This document shows positions 1,928 to 43,622 of a stretch of 47,234 bases of DNA, piece after piece; positions within the stretch are counted from its first letter, which is position 1; each line of letters begins with the position of its first letter. Made by a program: the position numbers and the translations under genes. Source of the stretch: a virus. A model generated the notes under the pieces. That model saw nothing but the letters and a program-made list of their open reading frames with translations. It was not told where the DNA came from and made no database searches. The stretch is taken from IMG/VR virus record IMGVR_UViG_3300028795_000002; one strand, written 5' to 3'.

Positions 1928-2124
1928 GTTACCAGATCAACTGGAAGGTGTTCGTGTGTGACCTCGGGCTCACCGAAGATGAAATTAAAGAGGTCTCTTC
2001 GAACAAAGTTCAAGTGGCTTTGCACACTGCGATCATCAAAGAGCTTCTTTTCCTCTTCCCAGATCTGCAGAATAAATTGCAAACCGGACTCAGCCCCTCA
2101 GAAGTCGTTTTCCTCCGGGATTAA
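1924..2124 (+). CDS. Hypothetical protein (66 aa)
   Basis: ATGA overlap with the GroES-like stop. Its stop codon lies inside palindromic element copy 1. Confidence 0.5.
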   Translation: MSYQINWKVFVCDLGLTEDEIKEVSSNKVQVALHTAIIKELLFLFPDLQNKLQTGLSPSEVVFLRD

Positions 2125-2147
2125 TAATTTGTAATCCCGGTAAATAA
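2108..2147. repeat. Palindromic intergenic element, copy 1
   Basis: TTTTCCTCCGGGATTAATAATTTGTAATCCCGGTAAATAA. It contains the stop codon of 1924..2124. Confidence 0.85.
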
Positions 2148-2153
2148 CCGTAG

Positions 2154-2179
2154 TTCCATAACTGGAGTTATAGCAATGA
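2154..2179 (+). repeat. 26-bp direct repeat (copy 1) carrying RBS and ATG
   Basis: TTCCAtaACTGGAGTTATAGCAATGA versus 2438-2463 TTCCActACTGGAGTTATAGCAATGA (24/26 identical). Confidence 0.9.
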
Positions 2180-2430
2180 ACATACAAAACCTCACACAAG
2201 CTGAAGTTTCACAAAATACAAATGACATCAAAAGTGCCACAGAAATTTTACATGCTGTCGCGGATATTCATAGAATGAAAATAACAAATGAGTCCCGGAT
2301 AGAACTTATCCAACGGCAAGTAGAACGATTGTATGAACTTCGCCGTGGTGCCCCCACTGGAGAACGTCATGTTGAAAAGTCCATAGAGCAGATCGAAGGT
2401 GTTCTTCGGAATCTTAAAGGTCTACACTAA
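2176..2430 (+). CDS. Hypothetical coiled-coil protein (84 aa)
   Basis: RBS GGAG 9 nt upstream. The whole gene is bracketed by 26-bp direct repeats (2154-2179 and 2438-2463). Confidence 0.55.
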   Translation: MNIQNLTQAEVSQNTNDIKSATEILHAVADIHRMKITNESRIELIQRQVERLYELRRGAPTGERHVEKSIEQIEGVLRNLKGLH

Positions 2431-2437
2431 ATAGAAT

Positions 2438-2463
2438 TTCCACTACTGGAGTTATAGCAATGA
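2438..2463 (+). repeat. 26-bp direct repeat (copy 2) carrying RBS and ATG
   Basis: See 2154-2179. Confidence 0.9.
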
Positions 2464-3404
2464 GCCTTGCTTTGAGAAAATTATTCCGCCAACTGCACGA
2501 AGAACAGACCGGGGAGGGTGGGGAGGGTGGTGGAGGTTCCGACCACGATACCGCAGTTGCCCGCGAGCAGGAACTCGAAGCCTCCCGCAAGGGCTGGCAG
2601 CCGAAGCACAAGTACAAAGGCCCTGAAGGTGGTTGGAAGGACGCTGCAACCTTCCTGGCAGATGGTGCTCGCTACAACAACCGACTGCAGGACGAGCTTG
2701 CTCAAGTCAAACGGGAACTTGCTGAATTTAAGGGCACCGCAAAACAATTCTCCGAATTTCAACAGCGGCAAATCGAGTCCCGAGATGCTGAAATCGGCTC
2801 CCTGCTCCGCGACCTCAAGAACCAGCAACGCGCAGCTATTCGGGACGGCGATGATGCCACTGCTGATGCTCTTGACGACCGCATTGAAATCCTCACAGAC
2901 GAACGAGCGAACGTCAAAAAGCAGATTGAAGACACCAAGCAATCTAAAGATCCTCAAGCAGCCAACCGCCCTCCGGTAGTCAATGAGGACGGAACCACCA
3001 GTGACCCCACGGTCACAGCCTGGATCGAAGATGGCAATAGCTGGTTCCGCGAATCTCGCCCTATGCGTGAATATGGCTTTGCTCTTGCCAATGAGTTGAT
3101 GGCTAATGGAGAAACCAAACGCGGTCGGCCCTTCCTCGACCTCATCACAGAGAAGATGAAAGAAGCCTTCCCATTAAAGTTTGATGAAGGCCGGAGCGAT
3201 CCGACACGACGAGGGAATATGACGGAATCTGGTGGCGGTGGTGGTTCTGGGGGCCAAAAGTACACGGTCAATGATCTGCCTGAAGCCGACCGAGAATTGA
3301 TGAAGGTAGGCATTCGCCAGGGCTGGACAACCGAAGCGACTTTCCTCAAGAACTATTTCGACGACTCCCCCCACATCCATCGAACCGCTGAAAAGAAAAA
3401 GTAA
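2460..3404 (+). CDS. Putative scaffolding protein (314 aa, coiled-coil, Gly-rich linkers)
   Basis: Lies between portal and capsid. Long charged heptad-like region (RLQDELAQVKRELAEFKG...) with low-complexity GEGGEGGGG and GGGGGSGG tracts. Call rests on position and composition only. Confidence 0.5.
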   Translation: MSLALRKLFRQLHEEQTGEGGEGGGGSDHDTAVAREQELEASRKGWQPKHKYKGPEGGWKDAATFLADGARYNNRLQDELAQVKRELAEFKGTAKQFSEFQQRQIESRDAEIGSLLRDLKNQQRAAIRDGDDATADALDDRIEILTDERANVKKQIEDTKQSKDPQAANRPPVVNEDGTTSDPTVTAWIEDGNSWFRESRPMREYGFALANELMANGETKRGRPFLDLITEKMKEAFPLKFDEGRSDPTRRGNMTESGGGGGSGGQKYTVNDLPEADRELMKVGIRQGWTTEATFLKNYFDDSPHIHRTAEKKK

Positions 3405-3453
3405 CTCCCCCTTTCTCAGCACTTCTCCTTTCCTTTCTCTTTGAGGTATTCTC

Positions 3454-4056
3454 GTGGATAATGAAACCAAGACCGCAGCCGGGGCATTCCAAAAATCCCC
3501 CGACACGGACACCAACCGACTCTTACAAGCCCGTCGCCAAGGCCGCTCTCTCCGGGAATCCCGAGAGGATGGCACAGCCCCCCGCGAGCGGGAGAATGAT
3601 TTGGGAGGTCTCACCCTCCAGTTGCACGTTCACGGAGAAATCCCCGGCCACAAGTTGGCTTGGGTCAACGACGAGGACGGAGCAATCGAACACAAGCTTC
3701 ATCAAGGTTTTGATTTCGTCACACAAGACGAGTTATATGCAAGGCAAGCAAAGATCGTCCCGGATGAGGAAATTAGCAGTGTGATTTCCCGATTCGTGAA
3801 AGGGACTCGCAGCGATGGGCAGGCTCTTCGGGCTTACCTGTTGAAGTGTCCTGAGGATCTTTGGGCTGAAATCGAATCGCGCCGGTATCGGGCTGCAGAT
3901 AAGTGGGACGCAGACATCCGCAGGCAGGCAGAAGATCCAGACCAACGCGCTGGCCTCCGCAGCCTCAGGAATCTGAGAACTGAAATCGATACTGGCTACA
4001 AGAGAGAATACGAGCTGGGGCAAGCCGCAAAAGAGCGCGGTCGTTCTAGCGAGTAA
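3454..4056 (+). CDS. Hypothetical head-assembly-module protein (200 aa, GTG start)
   Basis: GAGG lies 7 nt upstream of the GTG. Charged, Arg-rich termini. Lies between the scaffold-like gene and the capsid genes. Confidence 0.5.
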   Translation: MDNETKTAAGAFQKSPDTDTNRLLQARRQGRSLRESREDGTAPRERENDLGGLTLQLHVHGEIPGHKLAWVNDEDGAIEHKLHQGFDFVTQDELYARQAKIVPDEEISSVISRFVKGTRSDGQALRAYLLKCPEDLWAEIESRRYRAADKWDADIRRQAEDPDQRAGLRSLRNLRTEIDTGYKREYELGQAAKERGRSSE

Positions 4057-4113
4057 TCCGCAACTTGGGGCTGGGTCGGCCCCTCTCAACAAACCCTAAC
4101 TTCTAGGGAGACC

Positions 4114-4734
4114 ATGATGGCGAATTTTACCCAACCCCGTGGCTTCGTTCCCGCTCGCTATATGAATGGCGCAGCGTGGAGCGGAGGCGGGAACATGTAT
4201 TACATCCCTGCTTCTGATACTAACCAGTATAATCCTGGCGATGTCGTGCTGACGGCCGCAGTTGGTGCTGATGCCAACGGTATTCCGGCAGTCACGAAGA
4301 ACACCACAGGTACGGGCGTGGTTCGTGGCGTGGTGATCGGTTGCCTCACAGCAAACCCGAACAACCCTTCGCTGGTCGGCACGAACATCGACCTGACGAT
4401 CCAGAACATCCCGGCTACGAAAACCAAAGCATACTACGTGCTGGTGGTGGACGATCCGAAGGTGGTTTTCCAGATCCAGGATGACGGCATCACCACGGCC
4501 AACCTGGTCGCGGCAAGTGTGGGCCTCAATGCATCCTTCACTGTGACCAACCCAACGGCCCCTTCGCAGAACTCCGCAACGGTTCTCCTGTCGAGTTCCT
4601 TCGCAACCACCGCTGCGCTAACCGTCAAGCTCTTCGGCCTCTCCCAGATTCCGAATAACGCGTTCGGCGCTAATGCGACCTGGGATGTGATCTTCAACCA
4701 ACACGAATTCCAAGGCAACACTGCCGGCGTTTAA
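4114..4734 (+). CDS. Capsid-associated protein, possibly a head decoration protein (206 aa)
   Basis: Lies immediately upstream of the major capsid gene. Beta-rich, Gly/Val/Thr-rich. The product call is positional only. Confidence 0.45.
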   Translation: MMANFTQPRGFVPARYMNGAAWSGGGNMYYIPASDTNQYNPGDVVLTAAVGADANGIPAVTKNTTGTGVVRGVVIGCLTANPNNPSLVGTNIDLTIQNIPATKTKAYYVLVVDDPKVVFQIQDDGITTANLVAASVGLNASFTVTNPTAPSQNSATVLLSSSFATTAALTVKLFGLSQIPNNAFGANATWDVIFNQHEFQGNTAGV

Positions 4735-4763
4735 TTCGTAATCGCTAATTAAGGAGAATTACC

Positions 4764-5678
4764 ATGCCAGGTATTGTCAATACAGGCTCCTACCCCAAGG
4801 GACTATGGGAAGGGGTAAAAAGCTGGTGGGATTCGGCAGCTCCGGGTGCCCCGGAGTTTGCCCCCATGATGTTCCGCAAGTACGAATCGGATAAGAACTA
4901 CGAAGAGTACGTGCAGAGCGTTGGCCTGGGCCTTGCGGTGTTCAAGCCGGAAAGCCAGCCAATCAGCTACGACACGATGCAACAGGGTTTCATCACCCGT
5001 GGCACGAACGTAGCGTACGGTCTGGGGATCATTGTCACTCACGAAGAGTTGAAGGATAACCTCTACGTGAAGCTGACCCAGGGCCGTGTTGAGCGCCTTC
5101 GTCGGGCCTTCCGTGAAACGAAAAACATCAATGCCACGAATGTGTTCAATCGGGCCTTCAACTCCGCATATCTTGGCGGTGATGGGGTTTCCCTGCTGAA
5201 CACGGCCCATCCGAACTTCTCGGCAGGCACCTGGCAGAATAAGATGGCTATCGATGCGGCGCTTTCGCAAGCAGCTGTTGAAGACATGCTGATCTTGATG
5301 ATGCAGTCGAAAGACGATCGCGGGTATATCGAGCCGTTGTCTGGGGACAAGCTGATTGTCCATCCGAACAACATCATGAATGCTGATCGGATTTTGAAAA
5401 CCGCCAAGGCTGTCGGAAACAACAACAACGATATCAACCCGATCAATACCGAAGGGTATTTGTCCGGCGGTCGTGTCAGCAATCCGTACCTGACGGCAGC
5501 CGATCCGTGGTTCATCACCACCGGCATTCAAGATGGCATGATCTGGCAAGAGCGTGAGCCGTTGGAGATCTGGGAAGACAATGACGCAGATACCCGGAAC
5601 TACAAAGTAGGTGCCTACGAACGTTATACCTTCCTGTGGGCTAATCCGCGTGGTCTGTTCGGCAGCAACGCAGCCTAA
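4764..5678 (+). CDS. Major capsid protein (HK97-fold type inferred), 304 aa
   Basis: Strong RBS (TAAGGAGA). Size, composition and position fit a major capsid protein: after scaffold/decoration-like genes and before the head-tail genes. Confidence 0.75.
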   Translation: MPGIVNTGSYPKGLWEGVKSWWDSAAPGAPEFAPMMFRKYESDKNYEEYVQSVGLGLAVFKPESQPISYDTMQQGFITRGTNVAYGLGIIVTHEELKDNLYVKLTQGRVERLRRAFRETKNINATNVFNRAFNSAYLGGDGVSLLNTAHPNFSAGTWQNKMAIDAALSQAAVEDMLILMMQSKDDRGYIEPLSGDKLIVHPNNIMNADRILKTAKAVGNNNNDINPINTEGYLSGGRVSNPYLTAADPWFITTGIQDGMIWQEREPLEIWEDNDADTRNYKVGAYERYTFLWANPRGLFGSNAA

Positions 5679-5719
5679 TTTTCCCCCGTGATTACTAATT
5701 TGTAATCCCGGTAGGAAAC
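5679..5719. repeat. Palindromic intergenic element, copy 2
   Basis: TTTTCCCCCGTGATTACTAATTTGTAATCCCGGTAGGAAAC. It starts at the first base after the capsid gene's TAA. Confidence 0.9.
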
Positions 5720-5795
5720 TACCCCTCAGGGGAGCTATTGAAGTTAGCCCTAGGCTACACTCTCGACAGCTCCCCTTCCTTATTTGGAGAACAGC

Positions 5796-7199: not shown

Positions 7200-7907
7200 A
7201 TGCCAACCTACAGCGGAACCTATAACTTTGCACTCACCGCTCAACAGTTGGTGACGGCAGCCTTGAACAAAACGGGAGCTTTTGACGAGTATGAAACCAT
7301 ACCGGCACAGGATCTTGCGAATGTCCTGCAGGCTCTTGAGATAATGGTTAAGGAGATGGCCCTGGATGGGATGCCCCTCTGGTGTCTGCAGGATATTGCC
7401 TTTCCTACGGTTGTCGGGCAGGCGACTTACAACCTGTCAACTATTACGGGCAGCACTCTCCCACTGCGGATTCTCGATCAGTATATCGTTGACCAGTCCG
7501 GAAATAGCGTCACCCTCGTCATGACCTCCCGGTATGATTGGAATACCCTTGGACAGAAATTTGCTCCTGGAATCCCTAATCAAGTGTGGTACAACCCCCA
7601 ATTAGGGGCGGGGATTCTCACTCTTTATGATGTCCCCTCAGATAACACCCACACTATTCACGTAGTAACACAACTGCAAATGCAGGACGTGGGGGCGCTC
7701 ACGAACAATCTCGCCTTTCCTCAGGAAGCCTACCGTATGCTGCTCTGGTGTCTTACTGATGAAATCTCCCTTGACTACAGCATGCCTCCTAACGAACGCC
7801 TAGAAGTCAACCAGAAAGCTACCGGATTTAAGGAAAAATTCTGGAATGCTGAGTTTGGGCAAGAACAAGCCAGTGTCTTCCTGACCCCCTCCGAGCGGAG
7901 TCGATAA
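7200..7907 (+). CDS. Putative head-tail adaptor / tail tubular A-like protein (235 aa)
   Basis: Position and size match podovirus adaptor genes. It is followed by a larger overlapping gene (TAATG). Confidence 0.4.
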   Translation: MPTYSGTYNFALTAQQLVTAALNKTGAFDEYETIPAQDLANVLQALEIMVKEMALDGMPLWCLQDIAFPTVVGQATYNLSTITGSTLPLRILDQYIVDQSGNSVTLVMTSRYDWNTLGQKFAPGIPNQVWYNPQLGAGILTLYDVPSDNTHTIHVVTQLQMQDVGALTNNLAFPQEAYRMLLWCLTDEISLDYSMPPNERLEVNQKATGFKEKFWNAEFGQEQASVFLTPSERSR

Positions 7908-9365: not shown

Positions 9366-9407
9366 GTTTCCCTCATACTTTACTAATTGTTAATCCCGGT
9401 GAAAAAC
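9366..9407. repeat. Palindromic intergenic element, copy 3
   Basis: GTTTCCCTCATACTTTACTAATTGTTAATCCCGGTGAAAAAC. It lies 8 nt after the stop of 7907..9358. Confidence 0.85.
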
Positions 9408-14965: not shown

Positions 14966-15007
14966 GTTTCCCTCCGGGATTAATAAATAGTAATTTCAGA
15001 GGGAAAT
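14966..15007. repeat. Palindromic intergenic element, copy 4
   Basis: GTTTCCCTCCGGGATTAATAAATAGTAATTTCAGAGGGAAAT. Confidence 0.85.
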
Positions 15008-15252: not shown

Positions 15253-15666
15253 ATGCCCCGCATTATCCACAAACGTCATCTGATTCGTATACCAGTTCCG
15301 GCGGATATTGCTTATGATGTCACCTATTACTACAACCCAGAAGGGGACAGGGAGATAAGTCTCAAGCATGTGGAAAGGCTGCTGGTGGGAACCGAAAACC
15401 AGAAAGGATTAGCGAAGCATTTTCTGTCTTCCATTCAAGGGAAATATGAACTTACCATTAAACAGAGGCTTTGCTTGCTGCAAATGGAATTTCCGAGAGA
15501 CCTGCGTTTAAAAGCGATTCGGGCCTGTATTGAAAAAGCCAATAAGAAATTTGAAGCCAGGTTTCGCGCCGATCCCCACGCTGTTTATTTGGAGGAGGGA
15601 ACGGCAATCTCTAGAGCGCTGCGGGATTTGGAATGTGAGAGGAAGATTCTGGCGACTGTGGGGTAG
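15253..15666 (+). CDS. Hypothetical protein (137 aa from ATG 15253; the track's TTG is at 15238)
   Basis: ORF flanked by palindromic element copies 4 and 5. No motif recognised. Confidence 0.5.
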   Translation: MPRIIHKRHLIRIPVPADIAYDVTYYYNPEGDREISLKHVERLLVGTENQKGLAKHFLSSIQGKYELTIKQRLCLLQMEFPRDLRLKAIRACIEKANKKFEARFRADPHAVYLEEGTAISRALRDLECERKILATVG

Positions 15667-15707
15667 TTTTCCTCCGCGATTAATAAAAAGTAAAGTACGG
15701 GGGAAAC
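15666..15707. repeat. Palindromic intergenic element, copy 5
   Basis: GTTTTCCTCCGCGATTAATAAAAAGTAAAGTACGGGGGAAAC. It overlaps the TAG stop of 15253..15666. Confidence 0.8.
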
Positions 15708-15728: not shown

Positions 15729-15757
15729 ATTGACAGGTTGTATTGACGACGTCATAA
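15729..15757 (+). promoter_or_regulatory. Near-consensus sigma70 promoter inside the late arm
   Basis: TTGACA - 17 nt - CATAAT. It lies 21 nt downstream of palindromic element copy 5 and about 410 nt upstream of the PurD-like gene. Confidence 0.6.
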
Positions 15758-15879
15758 TAAGAGCGCCCCCCGGGCGGTCGTTCTGTAGCTAGGGTCGGTT
15801 CTCCGGTTTTGCGCTCCAGCCAAACGGAGGTCAATTTTCTAGTAGTCGATTGCTCTCTCAATTCAGTCTAGTTTTTCGG

Positions 15880-15920
15880 TTTTCGGCGGGAATTACTAAT
15901 TAGTAATCCCGGTACGAAAT
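15880..15920. repeat. Palindromic intergenic element, copy 6 (perfect 16-bp centre)
   Basis: TTTTCGGCGGGAATTACTAATTAGTAATCCCGGTACGAAAT. The centre ATTACTAATTAGTAAT is a perfect palindrome. Confidence 0.9.
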
Positions 15921-17499: not shown

Positions 17500-17739
17500 A
17501 TGGCCGGAACTAACGCATACGTGTTGCCACCGGTTCCTCCTGCAGGGACTGATGCGAAATGGCTGCAGCAGCTGCAGGCTACTGTAATGTGGAATTTCAA
17601 TGCCACGGCAACGACAGCGAAAAGGCCGGTGAATCCTCTGATCGGGCAGCATCTCTTCGATACGACTATCGGAGCGCCGATCTGGTGTAAGTCATTAAAT
17701 CCGGTAGTTTGGGTGAATGGGGCAGGAACCGTGGTCTAG
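17500..17739 (+). CDS. Small fibre-associated protein (79 aa), paralog of 20631..20903
   Basis: C-terminus RPVNPLIGQHLFDTTIGAPIWCKSLNPVVWVNGAGTVV parallels RPTPTFVGQPYFDTTLGFMVWASQLSPSVWVDAAGVSV. Confidence 0.55.
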   Translation: MAGTNAYVLPPVPPAGTDAKWLQQLQATVMWNFNATATTAKRPVNPLIGQHLFDTTIGAPIWCKSLNPVVWVNGAGTVV

Positions 17740-17780
17740 TTTTCCCCCGGTTTTACTAATTGTTAATCACGGTAGGAAAC
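17739..17780. repeat. Palindromic intergenic element, copy 7
   Basis: GTTTTCCCCCGGTTTTACTAATTGTTAATCACGGTAGGAAAC. It overlaps the TAG stop of 17500..17739, and the next gene's RBS follows directly. Confidence 0.85.
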
Positions 17781-22758: not shown

Positions 22759-22764
22759 ACTTGG

Positions 22765-22806
22765 GTTTTCGACAGACTTTAATAAAAAGTAATATGCATA
22801 AATAAC
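22765..22806. repeat. Palindromic intergenic element, copy 8 (degenerate)
   Basis: GTTTTCGACAGACTTTAATAAAAAGTAATATGCATAAATAAC. It lies upstream of the holin. Confidence 0.55.
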
Positions 22807-24755: not shown

Positions 24756-24797
24756 GTTTTGTGCGTAGATTAATAAAAAGTAATCCCGGTAAGAAAT
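24756..24797. repeat. Palindromic intergenic element, copy 9
   Basis: GTTTTGTGCGTAGATTAATAAAAAGTAATCCCGGTAAGAAAT. It abuts the bidirectional terminator. Confidence 0.75.
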
Positions 24798-25124: not shown

Positions 25125-27526
25125 TAGCCACACTCTCCCCAAGATTTTTCACTGGACACCACCCCCACCGGAATGTAGAGGGGATCTTCATATGGTATTG
25201 CAATTGATGCCGCATTGCGAATCAGTTCTAATGCCTCGTCTTTCCTAGAAGTCGGAAACTGCCCCGCGAGCGAATCGTGGACTTGTAGTAAGATCTGAAT
25301 CCAATCACCGTAGGCATCGTCGATAGCCACATATGCGCGATTAATGAGACAAGCGACAGATGACTGCGGTATCCAAGCGATAGCCTGGTTAAAGATAGTC
25401 CCTTCGATTTTGTCGAAAAAGTAATTCCGATAGCCAAAAGCGTTCTCCACGTATCGTCGTGAGGAAACCTGTTTTTTGATATCACTTTGCCACTTGGCAA
25501 TCTCAGGACATAATCCAAAGTACCATTTTTGGATACGCTCAGTTTCATGTACATTGAGCCCGATCCTAGGAGCAATACCTTCCGCTGTGCCGAGATAGTT
25601 TGTCCCGTGACACAGGGATTTAAACATCGCATACTCGCGTGGGTGCGAGTTCTTCGACATACTTTGGTCATGGTAGTATTCCTTCATCACTTCCACATAG
25701 GGCTTGCGGCCAGCTTTGAAGTTTTCTTTCATCCATTCGCAGCCGGATTCCCAGGTAACAATTCGGAGGTCGGCACTATCGAGATCGATGTCGAAGAAGG
25801 TGTGGCCTTCATCCGGGATGAAAATATTTCGAATGTTCGGTAGTTCTAGCCCAGCATCTGCAGTCTCCCCGCCTTTGGGGATATTCTGCATGTTCATCCC
25901 GCTGCCGAATGCGTTCTTGCTGGATGAAAAGCGGTAGGTTTCCGTACCGGCAATGTTGAAGGAGCAACGCATTCTGCGATCCGCGTCGAGGGGAGCCAGC
26001 ACGAAAGTGGAATGGAACACTCCCAAAGAGCGAAGTTCAGAGATCTTGCGTATGACAGGCCACAAAATTGGCTCACGGGCTCCAAGAGACTGAAGAGCCG
26101 CATCATTTGTTGTGACTCCCCTGGTTCGAGAAGTAATCTTTTTAAGGCCCATCTGCCTATAAAAGAAATCCTGCATTTGCATGGGAGAGCGGTAGTTGAT
26201 TTCATAGCCTAGTACCTCACGCATCCAATGTTTGCGGGTTTCCGCCTCTCGCATGAGAGTGAGTGATAGGTCGGACCGTTTTTGTTGATCCACCCGCACA
26301 CCACGGATCATTGACTTGAGAACTTTCGGTCGTAGGGATTGCTGGAAGGAGTTGACGGATTCAAGTCCCATGCCTTTTAAGACAGACTTGAGGACATGAT
26401 AGACAGCGAGAGTGCGGCAGCTGTCTGTCGCGCAATACTCCCAATACTTCATCTCGTCCTCACCGTCCTCACCTTCTTTCCAGTCGGTGCGGTCATCCTT
26501 CCAGTAGAGGTGGTCGTCGCAGTACATTGAGGAGAGAAACCCGAGGTTCTTTGGCAAGCTGCTAAAGCAGGAATGCTGCATGAGCATTGTGTCAGCTACG
26601 TTCGTGGGGAGAATGCTCCAATGACGGTGGATGTATTGGAGATCGTAGTTGAAGTTTTGGCCGACCAGAAGAACTTTCGGATGTGTGAGGATTGCACAAA
26701 TTCTATGAACAAGTTCTGACTCTTGTTTGGGGTCCCAAAATCCTTCAGGATTTCTGAGAGGGCTCAATTGTACGCACAGTCCTTTGGTCGGTTCCCACGC
26801 GAAAGACAGACAAGTGATATGTCCCGAACGTGTTTCGATATCGCAAGATACTGGAAAGTCACCTTCACTCAAATCTATTCTATCGTGCAGCCATTCCAAA
26901 CGCTCGCACATCAATTGAAACCACTCAGCCGAATTATCTACTGCGATTAATCGAGAGTAATCACGGTGAAAAAGCCCCGGAGTCAGTGAATCCTTCTTCA
27001 CCCTCTTGAAATCGTGAACCATCCAGGGTCTGCGAGCGTATTGCAGATGGATCAAATCCACCTTCAACGTCGGGATGACCTTATACCCTGGTGTCAACAA
27101 CGAATCCATGATCGAGCTACGGTAGTTGTAGCTGGATGTTTGGCCAGTCAACGCGAACAATGCCAAATCCCCAACGGTGCAAATCACGTTGGGTTTGACG
27201 CGCTCCACCTCATCACGAATCGCCATGCACGCATCATAGAGCTTCTGCGTGATGAACTGCCCCTGAAAGTAGATGTGACTCGGCTGGCGGTCCTTTTTCT
27301 TTTCTATAATGTGCAGTTCATTGGGGTAGCAGCGAGATTTCATGACGAGGGTCATGTAGCAATCATCACGACGGATGCCTGCCTCTTGCAGCATCTTGGT
27401 GAGTTCAAATCCCCCGCCCCCGATGAAGGGCTCCCCACGACGAAGATCCTGCTCCGTTGGGTAGTCTCCGACAACCATTATCTTCGCGTTCAGAGGTCCA
27501 CTTGCACTTACCGTCATTTGAGCCAT
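25124..27526 (-). CDS. Family A DNA polymerase with 3'-5' exonuclease domain and an N-terminal UDG-superfamily-like domain (800 aa)
   Basis: Exonuclease motifs: SCDIETRS, LVGQNFNYDLQYI, YCATDSCRT. Polymerase motifs: A FFDIDLDSADLRIV, B FKSLCHGTNYLG, C LLQVHDSL. N-terminus VVGDYPTEQDLRRGEPFIGGGGFEL resembles the family-4 UDG motif GEAPG..E...G.PF.G.AG..L. Confidence 0.85.
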   Translation of the reverse strand: MAQMTVSASGPLNAKIMVVGDYPTEQDLRRGEPFIGGGGFELTKMLQEAGIRRDDCYMTLVMKSRCYPNELHIIEKKKDRQPSHIYFQGQFITQKLYDACMAIRDEVERVKPNVICTVGDLALFALTGQTSSYNYRSSIMDSLLTPGYKVIPTLKVDLIHLQYARRPWMVHDFKRVKKDSLTPGLFHRDYSRLIAVDNSAEWFQLMCERLEWLHDRIDLSEGDFPVSCDIETRSGHITCLSFAWEPTKGLCVQLSPLRNPEGFWDPKQESELVHRICAILTHPKVLLVGQNFNYDLQYIHRHWSILPTNVADTMLMQHSCFSSLPKNLGFLSSMYCDDHLYWKDDRTDWKEGEDGEDEMKYWEYCATDSCRTLAVYHVLKSVLKGMGLESVNSFQQSLRPKVLKSMIRGVRVDQQKRSDLSLTLMREAETRKHWMREVLGYEINYRSPMQMQDFFYRQMGLKKITSRTRGVTTNDAALQSLGAREPILWPVIRKISELRSLGVFHSTFVLAPLDADRRMRCSFNIAGTETYRFSSSKNAFGSGMNMQNIPKGGETADAGLELPNIRNIFIPDEGHTFFDIDLDSADLRIVTWESGCEWMKENFKAGRKPYVEVMKEYYHDQSMSKNSHPREYAMFKSLCHGTNYLGTAEGIAPRIGLNVHETERIQKWYFGLCPEIAKWQSDIKKQVSSRRYVENAFGYRNYFFDKIEGTIFNQAIAWIPQSSVACLINRAYVAIDDAYGDWIQILLQVHDSLAGQFPTSRKDEALELIRNAASIAIPYEDPLYIPVGVVSSEKSWGECG

Positions 27527-30745: not shown

Positions 30746-30782
30746 CAAAGTTTTTGCAGAGTGTCAGAGTCTGTAGTAGGAG

Positions 30783-30823
30783 TTATTTACCGAAATTACT
30801 AATTTGTAATCGCGGGGGGAAAT
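30783..30823. repeat. Palindromic intergenic element, copy 10
   Basis: TTATTTACCGAAATTACTAATTTGTAATCGCGGGGGGAAAT. It lies between the AAA_24 stop and the HNH promoter. Confidence 0.8.
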
Positions 30824-33901: not shown

Positions 33902-33917
33902 AAAGTTCCTCAAATTG

Positions 33918-33959
33918 GTTTTCTACCGGGATTAACAAATAGTAATCTATGGGGGAAAC
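33918..33959. repeat. Palindromic intergenic element, copy 11
   Basis: GTTTTCTACCGGGATTAACAAATAGTAATCTATGGGGGAAAC. It lies 7 nt after the stop of the HNH-like gene. Confidence 0.85.
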
Positions 33960-35748: not shown

Positions 35749-35798
35749 GAAAAGTGAGCCTTAAAAGTTAACTGTCACCGCTTGCGGTGGTGGAAGGA

Positions 35799-36857: not shown

Positions 36858-37288
36858 GACTTCTTCTCCGCTTGCACCACCTTTCCGGCGGTGAGGGCGG
36901 CGCGGGCTTGATCCGCCCAAATTTCGACGGTGCGGCCTTTGTCGATGAAGTCGTGCCCCTCGGCCATCAGTTCGCTGATCTTGCGTAAGCGCTGCTCGGC
37001 GACATACAGAGCCGCCTCAAAAGCTTCCCGCTCCCCTATCGCCCCCTTTGCGGCGTCCTCGCCGCGCATCGCTTCGACGAACAAGTTGCGAGCTTCCCCG
37101 ATCAGCTTCACGACGCGATCTCGCATCCAGTAAGCGTCATGGTCATATGACGGGTCGCCGTGATAGCGGCACGAAATTGCGGTGACTTCTGTTTCGAGCC
37201 AGCCAAATACGTCATCAGTCACCGCCTCGTCTGCTTGCTCGGCGTCGCCGCACGATTTCGCGGGAGCGGCAGTCTTTTCGTCCGTCAT
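36854..37288 (-). CDS. Hypothetical acidic protein (144 aa)
   Basis: Translationally coupled within the operon. No motif. Confidence 0.5.
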   Translation of the reverse strand: MTDEKTAAPAKSCGDAEQADEAVTDDVFGWLETEVTAISCRYHGDPSYDHDAYWMRDRVVKLIGEARNLFVEAMRGEDAAKGAIGEREAFEAALYVAEQRLRKISELMAEGHDFIDKGRTVEIWADQARAALTAGKVVQAEKKS

Positions 37289-37503
37289 TTCACCATCTCC
37301 AGCGATTCTTCAATCTCCGAAAAAGTCCCATCCAGCTTTTGGAAGTATTCTCGAACCAATTGCTCAAAGAAAGCTGATTTCACCCCATGAGGGATTCGGT
37401 TCTCCACCTCGGAGGTTAGGTAGGAGTCGATACGCGCTACGAGGTGGTCCGGCAGGACAATGCCGACACGTTGCGGAGCGGAGGTTTTACGGGGGCGTCC
37501 CAT
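37285..37503 (-). CDS. Ribbon-helix-helix (CopG/Arc-like) DNA-binding protein (72 aa)
   Basis: N-terminus MGRPRKTSAPQRVGIVLPDHLVARIDSY has a basic arm, a beta-strand and a helix, typical of RHH regulators. Confidence 0.6.
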   Translation of the reverse strand: MGRPRKTSAPQRVGIVLPDHLVARIDSYLTSEVENRIPHGVKSAFFEQLVREYFQKLDGTFSEIEESLEMVK

Positions 37504-37508: not shown

Positions 37509-37982
37509 CTACTCCTTAAGAGAAATAGGGATACCAGACCAGCCCTGCGATTCGTAGCAAGCCGGGCACATAGAAACATACTGCGGGCGGATTTCCACCT
37601 CCCTAGAAAGTCGGGAGAGTTCGAAAGAGTCCTTAGGGGTGAGGTAGCTGATCGCCCGCAAGCGAAGGTGTTCTTTCTTGATGAAGACACCTTCCACGCG
37701 TTGGTGCTCTGAATGGCAGGTGGAACACACTTGGGAATGGATTAAGAGTACTGCGGAGATGTTGGACCAGCCTTCCGCACGGTCCTTGATCTTCTGGACG
37801 TCCTTATAGTGGGCTTCTACTTCCGGCCCGGTCATCCAGCTGGCCGTTTTGGGGAGGACTGCCCCCTTGCGGGAGGCTTTGATGCCTTGTTTTTGTTCGC
37901 GCTGCTTCTTTTGCAGGTCTACGGATTCCCCGAGAAGGGAATCGAGGTCTGCGAATTCGTCTATAGCCGAATCGATTGTCAT
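37509..37982 (-). CDS. Hypothetical Zn-binding protein (157 aa) with N-terminal DLDSLLGE motif
   Basis: CSTCH...CPACY. GGAGGCTCA leader box. It is the first gene after a terminator, palindromic element and promoter. Confidence 0.5.
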   Translation of the reverse strand: MTIDSAIDEFADLDSLLGESVDLQKKQREQKQGIKASRKGAVLPKTASWMTGPEVEAHYKDVQKIKDRAEGWSNISAVLLIHSQVCSTCHSEHQRVEGVFIKKEHLRLRAISYLTPKDSFELSRLSREVEIRPQYVSMCPACYESQGWSGIPISLKE

Positions 37983-38051: not shown

Positions 38052-38093
38052 GTTTCCCGCAGAAAGTACTAATTAGTAATAGCGGTGGGAAAT
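38052..38093. repeat. Palindromic intergenic element, copy 12
   Basis: GTTTCCCGCAGAAAGTACTAATTAGTAATAGCGGTGGGAAAT. It lies between a terminator and a promoter. Confidence 0.85.
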
Positions 38094-38320: not shown

Positions 38321-38932
38321 TTACTCGTCACCACCACCCAGTTCTTCCAGCAACGCATCCGTGTCCACCGCCTCACCCTTCGGCTTTTGCTTCTTCGCGG
38401 CTTCCAGCTTCTCAATGATCGGCTTGATCGTCGGATTAGCGCGCAGGGCCAGCTTCTCCGAATTGGTCTTGCTCTTCAGGTAGCTCTTAACCTGTTCTGC
38501 GGTCTTGCCGGAGACTTCAACCAGAGCTTTCGCGAGAACCGAAAGACCAGCCATTGCCGAGCTTTCGCTCTTCGTGCGCTCCGCACCCCACTCACCAGCT
38601 TCCAGTCGCGCGATGAGTTCTTCTTCGGCGATCACCATGTCTTCCACATCTTCCAGACCTGCGACTTCATCACCGAGCTTTTGCAGCATGCCATGAGCGG
38701 CAAACTTCGCGAAGAGGGGCTTGTTCGCTGCGAGCTTCAGGCTGCGCGTTTCGCCATTTACGAAATCCAGGCGGATCGTCACGTCGAAGCCATCTTCCGA
38801 AATATCTGCGGTCTTGAGCAGTCGGCGCTTGCCTGCAAACTCCACCTCACGACCATCCGTCATGACGATGGTTTTCACTTCGCGCTTTGCCTTCGTGGTT
38901 GCTGTCGTGCCCACTTCAACATGTTCCGTCAT
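38321..38932 (-). CDS. Early protein of unknown function, paralog A (203 aa), acidic C-terminal DALLEELG tail
   Basis: Paralogous to 40507..41172. Compare HGMLQKLGD with HGLKQKLVD, and VKSYLKSKTNSEKLALRANP with VRDYLSAKTKEQRAALRKNP. It has its own consensus promoter and terminator. Confidence 0.6.
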   Translation of the reverse strand: MTEHVEVGTTATTKAKREVKTIVMTDGREVEFAGKRRLLKTADISEDGFDVTIRLDFVNGETRSLKLAANKPLFAKFAAHGMLQKLGDEVAGLEDVEDMVIAEEELIARLEAGEWGAERTKSESSAMAGLSVLAKALVEVSGKTAEQVKSYLKSKTNSEKLALRANPTIKPIIEKLEAAKKQKPKGEAVDTDALLEELGGGDE

Positions 38933-39872: not shown

Positions 39873-39914
39873 ATTTCCCACCGAAATTACAAATTAGTAA
39901 TCCCGGTGGGATAT
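39873..39914. repeat. Palindromic intergenic element, copy 13
   Basis: ATTTCCCACCGAAATTACAAATTAGTAATCCCGGTGGGATAT. It lies 1 nt from the RBS of 39592..39861. Confidence 0.85.
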
Positions 39915-40506: not shown

Positions 40507-41172
40507 CTATTCGGAGATGGAAACGAGCTTCTTCTTGCTCGTGCGTGCGTTGAGTTTCGCGGCAACCGGAGTGGGTTGCTCTGCGATGTCCGCTTCAATC
40601 CCCGAACCATCCCCCGCGTTTTCATCCGGCTGCGGCTCCATGCCCAACTCATTGAGCAGATCGTCCGTGTTGACGCCATTCACGACCGTAGCGGCCTGCA
40701 GTTCCGCCATAATTTGCACCACACGAGGGTTTTTGCGAAGCGCGGCGCGCTGCTCTTTGGTCTTTGCCGAGAGGTAATCACGAACATACAACTCGTCACG
40801 TCCAGTCATTTTCATGAGAGCGCGGAGCAGGATGTTGTTCACGCCCGCTGTGGATGTGGTGCCCTCACCGCTCGCCCGGTTCTCATTCCACTTGCCGTCC
40901 GGCGAGGCGAGCCGATCAGCGATTTTCTTCACCGCGAGGTACTTGTCATCCACGCTGGCCGATGCGCCGGTGTCGAGGTTCCGAGAGATCGCTGCAGCAT
41001 CTACGAGTTTTTGCTTCAGCCCGTGGAGAATTGCCATGTTGCGGATGTCGTCATTGAGTACGTTGGCATCTACGACAATCTCTTTCCCGTTTGAGAAGTT
41101 GAGTGTAAGCGTCATTTTCGGGAGGTAGACGTCAGCGGAGATTGTGGACTTCTTGCTGGATACGATTGCCAT
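40507..41172 (-). CDS. Early protein of unknown function, paralog B (221 aa)
   Basis: Paralog of 38321..38932. Contains an internal NTDDLLNELG motif followed by an acidic/basic tail. AGAGGCTCA leader box. Confidence 0.6.
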   Translation of the reverse strand: MAIVSSKKSTISADVYLPKMTLTLNFSNGKEIVVDANVLNDDIRNMAILHGLKQKLVDAAAISRNLDTGASASVDDKYLAVKKIADRLASPDGKWNENRASGEGTTSTAGVNNILLRALMKMTGRDELYVRDYLSAKTKEQRAALRKNPRVVQIMAELQAATVVNGVNTDDLLNELGMEPQPDENAGDGSGIEADIAEQPTPVAAKLNARTSKKKLVSISE

Positions 41173-41607: not shown

Positions 41608-41650
41608 GGTTTCCCCCATACTTTACTAATTAGCAATCGCGGGTGGAAAC
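41608..41650. repeat. Palindromic intergenic element, copy 14
   Basis: GGTTTCCCCCATACTTTACTAATTAGCAATCGCGGGTGGAAAC. Confidence 0.8.
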
Positions 41651-42042: not shown

Positions 42043-42212
42043 GACAGCACCCCCACCACACTAATAACAGCGGACACGTCCAATCCGAATGCCTCTACAT
42101 CGGCCCAGAAATCCTTTACAGCTTGCTCCGCCGCTTCAGCCCTATACTCGTGAGTCGTAATACCACTGCCCGCGATAGGTGCGGCGAGCACGGTGATTTG
42201 GTACTTTCTCAT
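42039..42212 (-). CDS. Hypothetical protein (57 aa from ATG 42212)
   Basis: G-rich RBS. ATGA overlap with the downstream gene. Confidence 0.45.
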   Translation of the reverse strand: MRKYQITVLAAPIAGSGITTHEYRAEAAEQAVKDFWADVEAFGLDVSAVISVVGVLS

Positions 42213-42293
42213 GACGCCCCCTTCGTTACGTGAACAACCGGACGGGTGATGTAGTAAACCCCGTCTACCCAAGCGATGAATTGATGTTGCATG

Positions 42294-42476
42294 CTATTTC
42301 CCCTCTACCAACAGGTCGCCGTGAATCCAATCTGCATACTCACCGAAAGTCGTCCTGAAATTTACGAGATACCGCTCACCCGTCTCGTCAGATTCCGCGA
42401 GCACGACATAACCGCACGCGTCGTTTGCCTCATGCGCACTACACACAACCCGAACCAGAGACCCGATTGCGAACAT
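42294..42476 (-). CDS. Hypothetical protein (60 aa)
   Basis: AAGGAG RBS. Confidence 0.5.
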   Translation of the reverse strand: MFAIGSLVRVVCSAHEANDACGYVVLAESDETGERYLVNFRTTFGEYADWIHGDLLVEGK

Positions 42477-42488
42477 TTCTATCTCCTT

Positions 42489-42983
42489 TTAATTGTTACC
42501 GTACAGAAATTGATCCAGCTCCTTCTCATCCCGGATTTCCACCGTGGCCCAATAAGTCTGCCCTTTACCCGTATTACGTTCGTCTCTAACTTCAATCACA
42601 TCCGATGCATAGTTGATATGTGCGATGTGATTTTTACTTAACACACTAAACATATAGTTCAGCTCCTTTGCCCGCTCATTTGCCGTGATCAATGCGTCAC
42701 GTGCTTCTTTCGTACGCGGGCACCGATCAAACACCGTGTTGGCATGTTCACATTGCTTGCACATCATTTTAAGTTCAGACGGCGTGTAGAACCCCCGCAT
42801 GGATACCCCGAACGAGCCATCATCAATCACGAACTCGCAGGGCAGTTCGAATCCGAGTTCCGGGAACATTGCCATCAACTCATCACTAGTGATTACGCCG
42901 TTGCTCATTTCAATCTCCGGTTGGTTGCATACCGCATTTCGGGCGTTGCATGCTGCGGTACTACGGTTAGAAATATAGACCAT
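42489..42983 (-). CDS. Hypothetical protein, first gene of the early arm (164 aa; alternative start M26 at 42908)
   Basis: GAGGCTTGG leader upstream. No motif recognised. Confidence 0.5.
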   Translation of the reverse strand: MVYISNRSTAACNARNAVCNQPEIEMSNGVITSDELMAMFPELGFELPCEFVIDDGSFGVSMRGFYTPSELKMMCKQCEHANTVFDRCPRTKEARDALITANERAKELNYMFSVLSKNHIAHINYASDVIEVRDERNTGKGQTYWATVEIRDEKELDQFLYGNN

Positions 42984-43046
42984 TTTCCAAGCCTCAACGC
43001 GATGATATTTATCTATCAGGTTCTACGTGGCTGACTATCGGATGTA

Positions 43047-43083
43047 ATCGACTACCATCTCACCTAACTGACTCGCGGGTAAG
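43047..43083. repeat. Left arm of a long-range inverted repeat bracketing the divergent control region
   Basis: AATCGACTACCatctcacctAACTGaCTCGCGGGTAAG. Its reverse complement matches 43517-43555 in blocks of 12/12, 5/5, 4/4 and 11/11. Confidence 0.8.
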
Positions 43084-43516
43084 CCATTTCGTATGTGAAC
43101 AACTCGCACGACTGACAATACATATTAGAGGAATGAGGAGATGAATCAGCCATGGAGCTACGGTACGCGTGACACCTAATCGCTAGCCCCTCCCACTCAC
43201 TACCGTCATTAGCATAGCACGCTAGCTCTCATGGTCAGCCATCGATGTGAGGCCGTGTGTTAGAGCTATCGCTTTAGATGTATGTGAGTGGTCACTATCG
43301 GGCTGCGGGCTGCCAAATGTTGATAATTGGTGATTATGTCAAATGGGGAGTGCGCGAGGGGTAGGGAGGGGGAAATTCCGAAGGAGGTGTGAAAATTTGC
43401 AAGACACCATCCTATTTTTTCTGAAATTTTTCAATTCTCTCGATTACTGATAACAATTCCTAGCATCCTACTGTTAGTTTTTTCTCTTAGTAGGGGTTTT
43501 TCTCATAATTTATTCC

Positions 43517-43555
43517 CTTACCCGCGAGCCAGTTTGCGAGAGGGGGTAGTCGATT
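43517..43555. repeat. Right arm of the long-range inverted repeat
   Basis: CTTACCCGCGAGcCAGTTtgcGAGAgggGGTAGTCGATT. Confidence 0.8.
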
Positions 43556-43579
43556 GCGGTGCGTGCGAGGCTGTAGGTG

Positions 43580-43622
43580 GGTTTCCTTCCGGGATTACTA
43601 ATTGTTAATTTATGTAGAAAAT
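43580..43622. repeat. Palindromic intergenic element, copy 15
   Basis: GGTTTCCTTCCGGGATTACTAATTGTTAATTTATGTAGAAAAT. It lies in the divergent control region, 25 nt from the right inverted-repeat arm. Confidence 0.8.

Follow-up and report, generated by a model that had tools for sequence, protein, structure and literature searches.

The dispersed element in the phage genome

The window analysed here, IMGVR_UViG_3300028795_000002, is a complete, circularly assembled phage genome of 47,234 nucleotides. It carries a near-palindromic element of ~42 bp with the skeleton GTTWTY-N8-ATTAC-N6-GTAAT-N8-RAWAAC in 16 copies, 15 of them clear and intergenic and one, degenerate, internal to the DNA polymerase gene. 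The inner half-sites, ATTAC and GTAAT, have centres 11 bp apart, i.e. one helical turn, and are flanked by clade-specific GC-rich shoulders and then by the outer arms GTTWTY/RAWAAC, with an irregular subsite spacing of 13-11-13 bp. A repeat search of the genome placed 15 copies of ~45 nt in one family (starting at 2104, 5675, 9363, 14963, 15663, 15876, 17736, 24753, 26930, 30779, 33915, 38049, 39870, 41606 and 43578), and the degenerate copy at 22763 fell into a second family (D4). The coordinates of a preliminary description were thereby borne out, the sole extra copy being that at 26930-26974 in the polymerase ORF. An nhmmer profile built from the element copies and run on the genome recovered 14 copies with E = 3e-12 to 5e-9, the copy at 22765 with E = 5e-6 and the polymerase-internal one with E = 0.16. 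As for two partial relics proposed earlier, 4731-4745 is only a weak partial profile match (E = 2.6), and 35796-35816, which reads GGATTAC-N8-AGTAAG, has the wrong spacing.

The copies are only 60-85% alike within the genome, and the idealised 40-mer consensus, with zero matches at <=3 mismatches in the genome, is therefore an abstraction. The family itself is non-random, as previously expected: the core ATTAM-N6-KTAAT occurs 10 times versus 0.07 +/- 0.29 in 100 dinucleotide shuffles. The non-coding share of the genome is 9.2%, and it holds 15 of the 16 copy centres (binomial P = 4e-15). In the window all full copies are indeed intergenic, as stated earlier, but this does not extend to the whole family; likewise, the reported difference in element centre between late and early arms is seen in the window but is not a general rule in relatives.

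Genomic contexts of the individual copies

Copy 1 (2107..2148; E = 2e-11) lies between the ORF 1924-2124, whose TAA stop it contains, and the gene 2176-2430, and has syntenic counterparts in relatives. Copy 2 (5678..5719; E = 3e-12) begins at the stop codon of the major capsid gene (4764-5678) and has a small hairpin, CCCC-TCA-GGGG (5722-5732), on its 3' side. Copy 3 (9366..9407; E = 4e-10), 3' of the gene 7907-9358, combines a 'type B' left shoulder (CATAC) with a CCCGG right shoulder. Three further copies follow: copy 4 (14966..15007; E = 4e-11), 3' of the ORF 14778-14963; copy 5 (15666..15707; E = 2e-9), at the stop codon of the ORF 15238-15666 and 22 nt upstream of a sigma70-like promoter (TTGACA-17-CATAAT, 15730-15758); and copy 6 (15879..15920; E = 1e-11), upstream of the gene 16171-17490. 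Copy 7 (17739..17780; E = 2.5e-11) occupies the gap between the genes 17500-17739 and 17791-18306. The degenerate copy 8 (22765..22806; E = 5e-6) separates the tail-fibre module from the lysis genes, and its counterpart in relatives has the conserved form GTTTTCGACATACATTAACAAAAAGTAAT. Copy 9 (24756..24797; E = 5e-9) sits where the two transcription arms converge and is directly followed by a canonical bidirectional intrinsic terminator (24798-24822).

Beyond this point lies the polymerase-internal copy (26933..26974, minus strand; E = 0.16), in frame within the DNA polymerase ORF 25124-27526. Copy 10 (30782..30823; E = 3e-10) comes after the Sak4-like gene (30835-31710); downstream of it lies an inserted HNH endonuclease gene (30226-30687), which has a sigma70-like promoter of its own (30745-30718). 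Copy 11 (33918..33959; E = 9e-11) separates a second HNH endonuclease gene (33966-34427) from the gene 33668-33913; in relatives without this HNH gene the element is directly 3' of the helicase gene. Copy 12 (38052..38093; E = 3e-11) has a terminator-like hairpin (38117-38101) on one side and a sigma70-like promoter (38035-38007) on the other, both on the minus strand, the promoter leading into an operon with a zinc-ribbon gene and a gene for a ribbon-helix-helix (RHH)-like protein. Copy 13 (39873..39914; E = 4e-11), the most perfect palindrome of all with a -25.3 kcal/mol fold, stops 1 nt short of the next gene's GGAGG ribosome-binding site, and copy 14 (41609..41650; E = 1e-10) has an AGGAGG ribosome-binding site 6 nt downstream. 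Copy 15 (43581..43622; E = 3e-9) is found in the 750-nt non-coding region (42984-43733) between the divergent arms.

Position relative to genes, promoters and terminators

The placement beside stop codons reported for the window is borne out across the family: the stop-to-element distance has a median of +5 nt, with 61 of 124 copies within about 10 nt of a stop (histogram bins -10 and 0), and the distance from the element to the following start codon a median of 31 nt. Since the elements fill stop-to-RBS gaps, some copies ending 1-30 nt before ribosome-binding sites, they must be transcribed. Canonical terminators adjoin elements but none lies within them, and the absence of a U-tract noted earlier is correct. 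Sigma70-like promoters are over-represented just downstream of the elements, at 13 of 128 copies, versus 4 upstream and 1 antisense.

The short distances to ribosome-binding sites might also be read as those of a promoter module, in which host RNA polymerase with a phage factor (sigma-like or an activator) would start a short-leader transcript at each copy, with MotA boxes and Ogr/Delta sites as analogues. Compatible with this are the greater conservation of the gene-proximal shoulder or half relative to the distal one, a copy number about equal to the promoter number of a T7-type genome, the paucity of sigma70 consensus promoters in the genome, the zinc-ribbon protein (37509-37982) encoded beside the RHH-like gene and an Ogr/Delta-like zinc finger annotated near the helicase gene in the relative MW202489.1. 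However, a near-symmetric element would fire in both directions, and it contains no conserved -10-like hexamer with the essential A2/T6 positions. One copy immediately precedes a terminator where the two arms converge, another is within the polymerase gene, and several copies have separate sigma70 promoters downstream. We accordingly regard a promoter function as improbable.

Conservation across related phages

IMG/VR relatives have the element at the corresponding, syntenic gene boundaries, and its shoulders are specific to the clade. The skeleton is present, at 0.2-0.45 copies per kb, in all relatives whose helicase is about 53% identical or more, and clades of very different GC content share an almost invariant inner TTAC-N6-GTAA core. 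The earlier observation that the shoulders decay independently is upheld: non-complementary 'type A' and 'type B' half-sites mix freely, and the half-sites are themselves conserved.

The near-invariant core and the clade-specific shoulders could also fit a host protein, such as a nucleoid protein or global regulator, whose binding to these DNA sites the phage exploits, the shoulders reflecting different hosts. However, when 185,579 representative genomes were scanned with a single strict window-clade pattern, generic hairpins turned up in about chance numbers and no genome had a matching repeat family, and we attach little likelihood to this explanation.

The elements could also be landmarks for recombination or homing, either as PeSL-like cassette-exchange boundaries or as targets of the phage HNH endonucleases. 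Both HNH genes adjoin elements, relatives lacking these genes retain the elements, three elements surround variable small ORFs at 14.8-16.2 kb, and the phage encodes Sak4 and an exonuclease. Homology breakpoints fall within 60 nt of an element in 5 of 38 cases versus 2.1 expected (P about 0.055), an enrichment that is marginal and confounded, as elements and breakpoints both lie at gene boundaries. Against this stand the stable synteny of copy positions over deep divergence, the within-genome divergence of the copies, which makes them a poor substrate for homologous recombination, and the lack of HNH genes in most element-bearing clades; further, the in-frame polymerase copy and the clade-specific co-variation point to a constant recognition factor. 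The cassette-boundary role proposed earlier has weak support from the HNH genes and the breakpoints, and we judge it quite unlikely.

A conserved copy within the DNA polymerase gene

Each related clade with an inspected polymerase region carries a full internal copy, some 545-552 nt from the start of the gene (some 540 nt in GenBank MW202489.1); that of the window is degenerate and encodes LFHRDYSRLIAVDN. The encoded amino acids follow the DNA variant of the clade, being FHRDYKLLIAVDN in one and IIRPDYNFVIRPNY in another, and the internal copy scores highest with the shoulder matrix of its own clade. Synonymous codon identity at this copy is 0.76 versus a gene mean of 0.48 +/- 0.08, the top window of the gene. 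The polymerase-internal copy is under nucleotide-level selection.

A short, dispersed intergenic palindrome is what a selfish REP- or MITE-like sequence that spreads through the phage genome would typically look like. This origin is very remote, as the copies occupy orthologous rather than variable positions across clades and are under strong purifying selection, including that in the polymerase gene, no transposase or RAYT gene was found in the phage, and the strict-pattern scan of representative genomes found no host copies. The element is real and its positions are conserved; it is selected at the nucleotide level, and its copies co-evolve as a family.

Double-stranded DNA site versus RNA hairpin

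As transcribed sequences that begin right at stop codons, a typical spot for 3' hairpins, the elements could act as RNA hairpins in polycistronic transcripts, with a ~20-bp stem and an internal loop serving RNase III-type processing, 3' stabilisation or U-tract-independent attenuation, as between T7 genes. T7 RNase III sites have a stem-internal loop-stem shape, which the element recalls, and for 9 of the 16 copies in the window the fold is better than in shuffles, reaching -25 kcal/mol. The remaining 7 fold no better than shuffles (z > -1; copy 3, for example, has z = +0.42), yet are conserved in position and sequence among relatives. Sense-strand pairs show no G:U excess (144 G:U against 198 A:C, with 18% of pairs being other mismatches), and the shoulders are unpaired in many copies while the alternative half-sites are themselves conserved. 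Genuine RNA structures adjoin the elements instead: canonical terminators, and the hairpin 3' of copy 2, whose stems differ in relatives but are still complementary. A stable hairpin or cleavage site would carry a cost inside the polymerase ORF, yet no copy is more constrained than the one found there. An Rfam search with the element gave zero matches. The processing or stabiliser role suggested earlier is disfavoured by the shuffle-like folds and the pair counts, and we consider an RNA hairpin unlikely. The element is most likely a double-stranded DNA recognition site and not an RNA structure.

A candidate binder

The preliminary description had named two possible regulators. One, a winged-helix-like protein (wHTH-like, 36645-36857), is an unlikely binder because it has no homologue outside close relatives. 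The other, a 72-aa RHH-like protein (37285..37503, minus strand; MGRPRK...QRVGIVLPDHLVARIDSYL...), fares better and is the best candidate binder of the elements. It has a basic N-terminal arm resembling an AT-hook, is conserved in all element-bearing clades, and its operon, in which the zinc-ribbon gene (37509-37982) adjoins it, is preceded by an element in most of them. An RHH fold is weakly suggested by profile matches to a CopG-family RHH (E = 0.049) and the RHH antitoxin EndoAI (E = 0.074) in the PDB and by a Pfam RHH_1 match (E = 8e-4) of one member of the family; the AlphaFold model of the monomer has a pLDDT of 67, and a Foldseek search with it gave no matches. The predicted DNA-reading beta-strand changes with the shoulder variant, being RxG with CCGNG-ATTA and xN(I/V)(A/G/S) with other shoulders, a correspondence confounded by phylogeny. 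The co-occurrence is not exclusive, because Microcystis phage Mel-JY34 has an RHH homologue and lacks the canonical element.

A proposed genome-wide operator set

Among the three roles proposed earlier, an operator set for a dimeric phage regulator is the best supported, given the independent decay and mixing of half-sites, the lack of a wobble-pair signature and the nucleotide-level selection on the in-frame polymerase copy. The 5-N6-5 geometry would fit operators of dimeric or tetrameric regulators such as Arc. A link to transcription is suggested by the terminators that adjoin the elements, the sigma70-like promoters downstream and the better conserved gene-proximal shoulder. We give about an even chance to the proposal that the elements are operators, distributed genome-wide, of a DNA-binding protein that the phage encodes, with the RHH-like protein (37285-37503) as the best candidate. 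Such a sequence-specific protein would occupy all of the about 16 sites per genome, at gene boundaries on both transcription arms and in frame in the polymerase, and modulate host RNA polymerase there. The RHH-like protein would bind as a dimer of dimers or higher oligomer. Two points against it are the length of the site, 42 bp being long for a single RHH tetramer, and the irregular 13-11-13 bp subsite spacing. In a tight stop-to-RBS gap the bound protein may hinder read-through as a roadblock or insulator; at copies followed within 16-40 nt by a sigma70-type promoter, the element may be an upstream operator. We infer the effect on transcription, and at most sites it is conjecture, because only about 10% of copies have a recognisable downstream promoter. 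It also counts against the operator set that the phage, in which no integrase or repressor was found among the genes, is apparently virulent, and a roadblock in its late operons would be without obvious benefit.

Together, the sites would provide genome-wide temporal control of expression. Stoperators and Cluster O repeats are known sets of this kind, and the element set described here is conserved by a large group of uncultured phages.

A dispersed near-palindromic element in a complete phage genome

The window begins and ends with a 127-bp exact direct repeat (bases 1-127 are identical to 47108-47234), indicating that it is a circularly assembled, complete phage genome of ~47.1 kb; the junction of the circular assembly is crossed by the portal ORF. 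PHROG matches place the portal, the major capsid protein (4764-5678, plus strand), a head-closure-like protein, tail fibers and the large terminase (44613-46109, plus strand) on the plus arm. The minus arm codes for DNA polymerase A (25124-27526), a ParB-like domain fused to a methyltransferase (27740-29110), a Sak4-like protein, an exonuclease, two HNH endonucleases and a Dda-like helicase (34429-35748). The arms point away from each other at 42984-43733 and meet at ~24800. Pfam and PHROG searches of the scanned ORFs, which included all the small early ones, recognized no integrase, repressor, sigma factor or RNA polymerase. A megablast of half of the genome against GenBank phages returned no matches, and the nearest GenBank records by polymerase protein are the phage MW202489.1 (48.5%) and Microcystis phage Mel-JY34 (35.6%). 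Neither the element described here nor Mel-JY34 was found to be described in the searchable literature.

A repeat search of the window recovers a 15-member family of ~45 nt, with the degenerate copy at 22765 falling into a sister family. It matches the copy coordinates of the preliminary description exactly and adds one further member, at 26930-26974, inside the polymerase ORF. A profile built from the copies recovers them in the window at E = 3e-12 to 5e-6 and the polymerase-internal copy only at E = 0.16. The family is real and, as had been anticipated, beyond chance recurrence: its core, ATTAM-N6-KTAAT, was observed 10 times, compared with an expectation of 0.07. Spanning 42 bp, the near-palindromic element has information content that is symmetric overall, both halves being similar, and the centers of ATTAC and GTAAT lie 11 bp apart in all clades. 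The 40-mer consensus initially offered is an idealization, with not one copy in the window lying within three mismatches of it, and a strict perfect-palindrome detector proved too strict, retrieving a single copy there. The proposed restriction to intergenic regions holds for 15 of 16 copies, whose centers lie in the non-coding 9.2% of the genome (P = 4e-15), but not for the one inside the polymerase ORF. A supposed relic at 35797-35817 reads GGATTAC-N8-AGTAAG, which is element-like and decayed, but its spacer length is wrong; this site lies just upstream of the helicase gene, beside the hairpin CACCGCTTGCGGTG.

Several other features of the genome were observed alongside. An inverted repeat of ~38 nt (43047-43084 and 43518-43556; aatcgactacc..ctcgcgggtaag and its reverse complement) encloses ~430 nt within the 750 nt of non-coding DNA that separate the divergent arms; an origin, a packaging site and an early control region are conceivable roles for this stretch. 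Three conserved early proteins encoded on the minus strand (33668-33913, 38321-38932 and 40507-41172) have a common acidic C-terminal tail, D(T/S)D(A/D)LL(E/K/N)ELG, a pattern suggesting that all three dock onto one partner protein through it; two of the trio, of 203 aa and 221 aa, also have homologs in Mel-JY34. Just 5' of the large terminase gene, two paralogous HTH-like proteins (43734-44060 and 44057-44623, plus strand) are united by the motif ..P..(T/S).K(E/Q)L(A/G).IF......W(I/V). The small terminase is probably the second of them, whose counterpart in MW202489.1 is labeled 'cyclic nucleotide-binding domain'.

Conservation of position and clade-specific divergence of sequence

Scans of IMG/VR, four seeded with proteins and one with a pattern, yielded more than 170 related loci, across which the element is widely conserved. 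Close relatives bear it at the window's gene boundaries at ~2126, 5697, 9385, 15898, 17758, 22784, 24775, 33937, 38071, 39892, 41628 and 43600, with a few positions extra or missing relative to the window. This retention at the same boundaries indicates that the copies are old and held in place rather than recently mobile. The skeleton GTTWTY-N8-ATTAC-N6-GTAAT-N8-RAWAAC is kept in IMG/VR contigs down to ~53% helicase identity, at 0.2-0.45 copies/kb, while the shoulders, i.e. the GC-rich stretches between the outer arms and the inner half-sites, differ by clade (CCGGG, CCGCG, CGCGTGG, GTGAGG, CCGCAC, TAGTAGG and others). More distant phages, MW202489.1 and the related loci L184 and L197, have recognizable variants, e.g. 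CCGGGTTTAC-N6-GTAAACCCGG.

We considered whether the element might serve as a landmark for recombination or homing, a reading that we regard as improbable. As the preliminary description held, both HNH endonuclease genes (30226-30687 and 33966-34427, minus strand) directly adjoin copies of the element. Most related clades lack both HNH genes and keep the elements, and homology breakpoints are marginally enriched near elements (5 of 38 cases against 2.1 expected; P ~0.055). The HNH gene at 30226-30687 has a sigma70-like promoter of its own at 30745-30718 on the minus strand. A selfish repeat is more remote still and we give it hardly any credence: no transposase was found, and a mobile palindrome of the REP or MITE type was rejected on this count, because the positions are syntenic and because the genome scan described below revealed no host family.

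A dual-use copy inside the polymerase gene

The unusual feature of the family is its copy within the polymerase gene, which combines coding and site function. A full in-frame copy occurs ~545-552 nt into the gene in every clade with a polymerase region examined, e.g. at 6771 in L004, 10552 in L044, 10549 in L061 and 6244 in L059 (all related loci), among others, and ~540 nt into the gene in MW202489.1; the window's own copy, at 26933-26974, is decayed. The copy takes the form of its clade's variant and the encoded peptide changes along with it, being FHRDYKLLIAVDN in one clade and IIRPDYNFVIRPNY in another; what is conserved is the DNA motif and not the protein. When the polymerase-internal copies of three divergent clades are scored against shoulder matrices of intergenic copies, each clade's own matrix gives +11 to +13 bits and those of other distant clades give negative values. 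The element family is co-evolving. That the element is under strong selection is evident from a comparison of ten polymerase genes whose amino-acid identities to that of the window are 68-86%: a 14-codon window over the element has a synonymous codon identity of 0.76, the highest of ~790 windows, the gene averaging 0.48 (sd 0.08).

A probable DNA site rather than an RNA hairpin

Because the arms should covary at clade level whether the element is a DNA site or an RNA stem, tests were chosen that separate the two. In RNA hairpins acting as RNase III sites or stabilizers, pairing should persist across the copies and wobble pairs should be tolerated on the transcribed strand; here base pairing is not maintained across the copies. 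Among 128 copies oriented by their flanking long ORFs, the sense-strand arm pairs comprise 1536 Watson-Crick, 144 G:U, 198 A:C and 426 other mismatched pairs (18%). A selected RNA stem should give an excess of G:U, whereas here G:U does not exceed A:C. For seven of the 16 copies in the window, folding is no improvement on that of dinucleotide shuffles (z > -1), yet precisely these poorly folding forms recur, conserved, in relatives. No Rfam family was matched in the window. Within a clade, two half-site flavors that are unable to pair with each other mix freely as A+A, A+B and B+A, these being ACCGGGATTAC and CGACATACATTAAC in the clade of the window. An RNA hairpin is hence an unlikely explanation. 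We conclude that the selected object is most plausibly double-stranded DNA read by a protein.

Genuine RNA signals adjoin the elements rather than lying within them. A scan for terminators (GC-rich stem-loop plus U-tract) called none of the elements, in line with the earlier statement that they are not classical terminators. Where the arms converge, copy 9 (24756-24797) is directly followed by a bidirectional intrinsic terminator of canonical form, AAGCCACCTGAAACTGAGGTGGCTT, flanked on either side by T-runs (24798-24822), and a terminator-like hairpin on the minus strand (38117-38101) lies just before copy 12 (38052-38093). The element following the capsid gene is succeeded by a small hairpin at 5722-5732, found at orthologous positions in four related loci (L005, L007, L008 and L011). 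Its stems differ yet stay complementary among the relatives (CCCC/GGGG, CCGCT/AGCGG, CCTC/GAGG), which points to a true RNA structure at the 3' end, separate from the element.

Placement relative to genes and promoters

Family-wide, the median distance is 5 nt from the upstream stop codon to the start of the element and 31 nt from its end to the following start codon, and it often stops 1-15 nt short of the ribosome-binding site. Its outer TAG/CTA and central TAA/TAG supply stop codons in all three frames of both strands, and for this reason several ORFs end inside it. The arms are symmetric except that the gene-proximal shoulder holds 0.5-1.1 bits versus 0.1-0.5 bits for the distal one. These genomes contain few consensus sigma70 promoters. 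Within 110 nt downstream of the element such promoters are enriched, occurring at 13 of 128 copies (~10%), two of them being perfect TTGACA-17-TATAAT, versus four upstream and one antisense; in the window they follow copies 5 (15666-15707), 10 (30782-30823) and 12. Most copies are promoterless and lie within operons.

The element itself was rejected as a sigma70 promoter, having no acceptable -10 hexamer. As for a factor-dependent promoter, the same missing hexamer, the symmetry of the element and the presence of one copy at the convergent terminator all speak against it, and we rate it as having a small chance of being correct. Resemblances to Bacteroidetes, ECF, NtcA, DnaA-box, parS and IHF motifs, judged by eye, were likewise set aside, none being conserved across clades.

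A candidate reader of the element

Few small early proteins are conserved across the element-bearing clades. One of these is the 72-aa product of 37285-37503 (minus strand), whose sequence pattern is that of a ribbon-helix-helix (RHH) protein, with a basic arm (MGRPRK), a strand (QRVGIVLP) and two helices, and which has homologs in every element-bearing clade. A profile of 26 diverse members searched against PDB gives as its best matches the CopG family (E = 0.049), the EndoAI antitoxin (0.074) and MazE6 (1.4), and single members match the Pfam models RHH_1 (E = 8e-4) and RHH_3 (E = 0.007). An AlphaFold2 prediction from nine close homologs was poor (pLDDT 67), and a Foldseek search of this model against PDB had no matches. 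In most clades an element lies upstream of the operon encoding this protein. The predicted DNA-facing strand reads R-x-G in clades with CCGNG-ATTA shoulders and x-N-(I/V)-(A/G/S) in those with others, a co-variation that is confounded by phylogeny. Taken together, these observations are only suggestive of the RHH protein as the reader of the element. Mel-JY34 failed as a negative control supposed to lack both element and RHH protein, since a profile search found an RHH homolog there; this phage thus has the homolog without a canonical element.

The wHTH-like protein of 36645-36857, previously put forward as an alternative binder, loses standing by being conserved in close relatives only, and nothing ties the ParB-like domain of the methyltransferase to the element. 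The operon of the RHH-like gene also encodes, immediately upstream of this gene, a 157-aa zinc ribbon with two CxxC pairs (37509-37982, minus strand). It is weakly conserved in many clades, and an Ogr/Delta-like zinc finger is annotated in the corresponding neighborhood of MW202489.1. This zinc-ribbon protein could be a second regulator.

A scan of 185,579 representative genomes with the pattern CCGSGATTA-N8-TAATCSCGG revealed no comparable repeat family: its 50 matches, versus a rough chance estimate of ~70, are all generic hairpins and none fits the full profile. This argues weakly against a host regulon, and we hold a host binder to be a poor prospect. An apparent excess in Methylomonas was traced to a different hairpin repeat specific to this genus, CCGCGATTAGCGAAGCGTAATCGCGG, unrelated to the phage element. 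It recurs in seven Methylomonas genomes (L094, L113, L115, L116, L127, L133 and L134) and is probably a REP-like family of the genus.

Comparison with known dispersed sites

Typical RHH operators, such as those of P22 Arc and Mnt, plasmid CopG and omega, consist of inverted subsites one helical turn apart that are read by the beta-ribbons of dimers, with cooperative tetramers or longer arrays covering 20-50 bp; they occur at one or a few promoters, not ~16 times per genome. The element has this geometry in its 11-bp half-site spacing but is genome-wide, and membership of the candidate in the RHH superfamily is weakly supported. The KorB operators (OB) of plasmid RK2 similarly comprise about a dozen palindromic copies around a replicon under one global regulator, some promoter-proximal and others distal or intragenic. 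These sites are 13 bp long and are bound by a ParB-family CTPase; dispersed palindromic copies are common to both, whereas setting (plasmid versus phage) and length (13 versus 42 bp) differ. In lytic phages, T7 RNase III processing sites and T4-type PeSLs are structured sequences that recur in intergenic positions, at the borders of cassettes or genes. The former act as RNA, unlike the element, whose RNA pairing is not conserved, and the latter combine an early promoter with a stem-loop, whereas promoters accompany only ~10% of element copies.

Most similar in kind among known systems are Cluster A mycobacteriophage stoperators and the Cluster O dyad repeats of 17 bp; the element is a member of neither. 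Stoperators are sites of the L5/TipsytheTRex repressors present in more than 20 copies per genome; those at promoters are operators and those within operons are proposed to stop elongation (PMC9283540, PMC6550527). Like the element, they are many copies of one motif, protein-bound in their case, spread over a phage genome (PMC9283540, PMC6550527), mostly in short intergenic gaps near stop codons on both arms, with others at promoters. However, they are 13-bp asymmetric sites (PMC9283540) and not a 42-bp near-palindrome, they are bound by a monomeric two-domain HTH immunity repressor rather than an RHH-like candidate, their orientation strictly follows transcription where the element has a weak directional bias only, and they belong to temperate phages (PMC9283540, PMC6550527), whereas no lysogeny genes were found in the window's scanned ORFs. 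The Cluster O repeat (5'-TGTTCGGNNNCCGAACA; TGTTCGG-N3-CCGAACA) occurs in more than 30 copies per genome and is, as the element, palindromic, located in intergenic gaps with some copies inside ORFs, and oriented without clear relation to transcription (PMC4351075). It is much shorter (7-3-7), has invariant arms and an unrelated sequence, and neither an in-frame dual-constraint copy nor clade-specific co-variation has been reported for it (PMC4351075), whereas the element has both.

Mechanistic interpretation and implications

We infer both the identity of the binder and the transcriptional outcome as follows. An early-expressed phage protein, probably the RHH protein, would bind the inner ATTAC/GTAAT pair, and binding would probably spread cooperatively across the shoulders and outer arms. 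An 11-bp spacing of half-sites is the geometry of Arc-type operators. Complexes bound in the gaps between stop codon and ribosome-binding site may hinder elongating RNA polymerase as a roadblock or insulator, while those upstream of promoters may act as operators; the polymerase-internal site might let the same protein limit polymerase expression. In its fullest form this amounts to a large lineage of uncultured, apparently virulent phages with an independently evolved stoperator-like system, wherein one small RHH protein would read ~16 palindromes of 42 bp and gate RNA polymerase at nearly every operon boundary, the polymerase-gene site would dictate ~14 residues and let the regulator throttle polymerase synthesis, and at least nine specificity variants would have arisen as protein and site diversified together. 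We offer this full combination tentatively, as possible rather than probable.

Dispersed operator-like repeats were already known from a few phage groups, and the element family is a further case of such genome-wide repeats in phages. Its skeleton is a simple signature by which metagenomes can be searched for this phage group and for the limits of its transcription units. The value of the family lies in its deep conservation, its fixed positions, clade variants that change with a small candidate DNA-binding protein, and a copy that is both coding and putatively regulatory; these four properties together make recognition specificity and function directly testable. If true, the co-diversified variants, at least nine in number, would be a natural set of orthogonal regulator-operator pairs.
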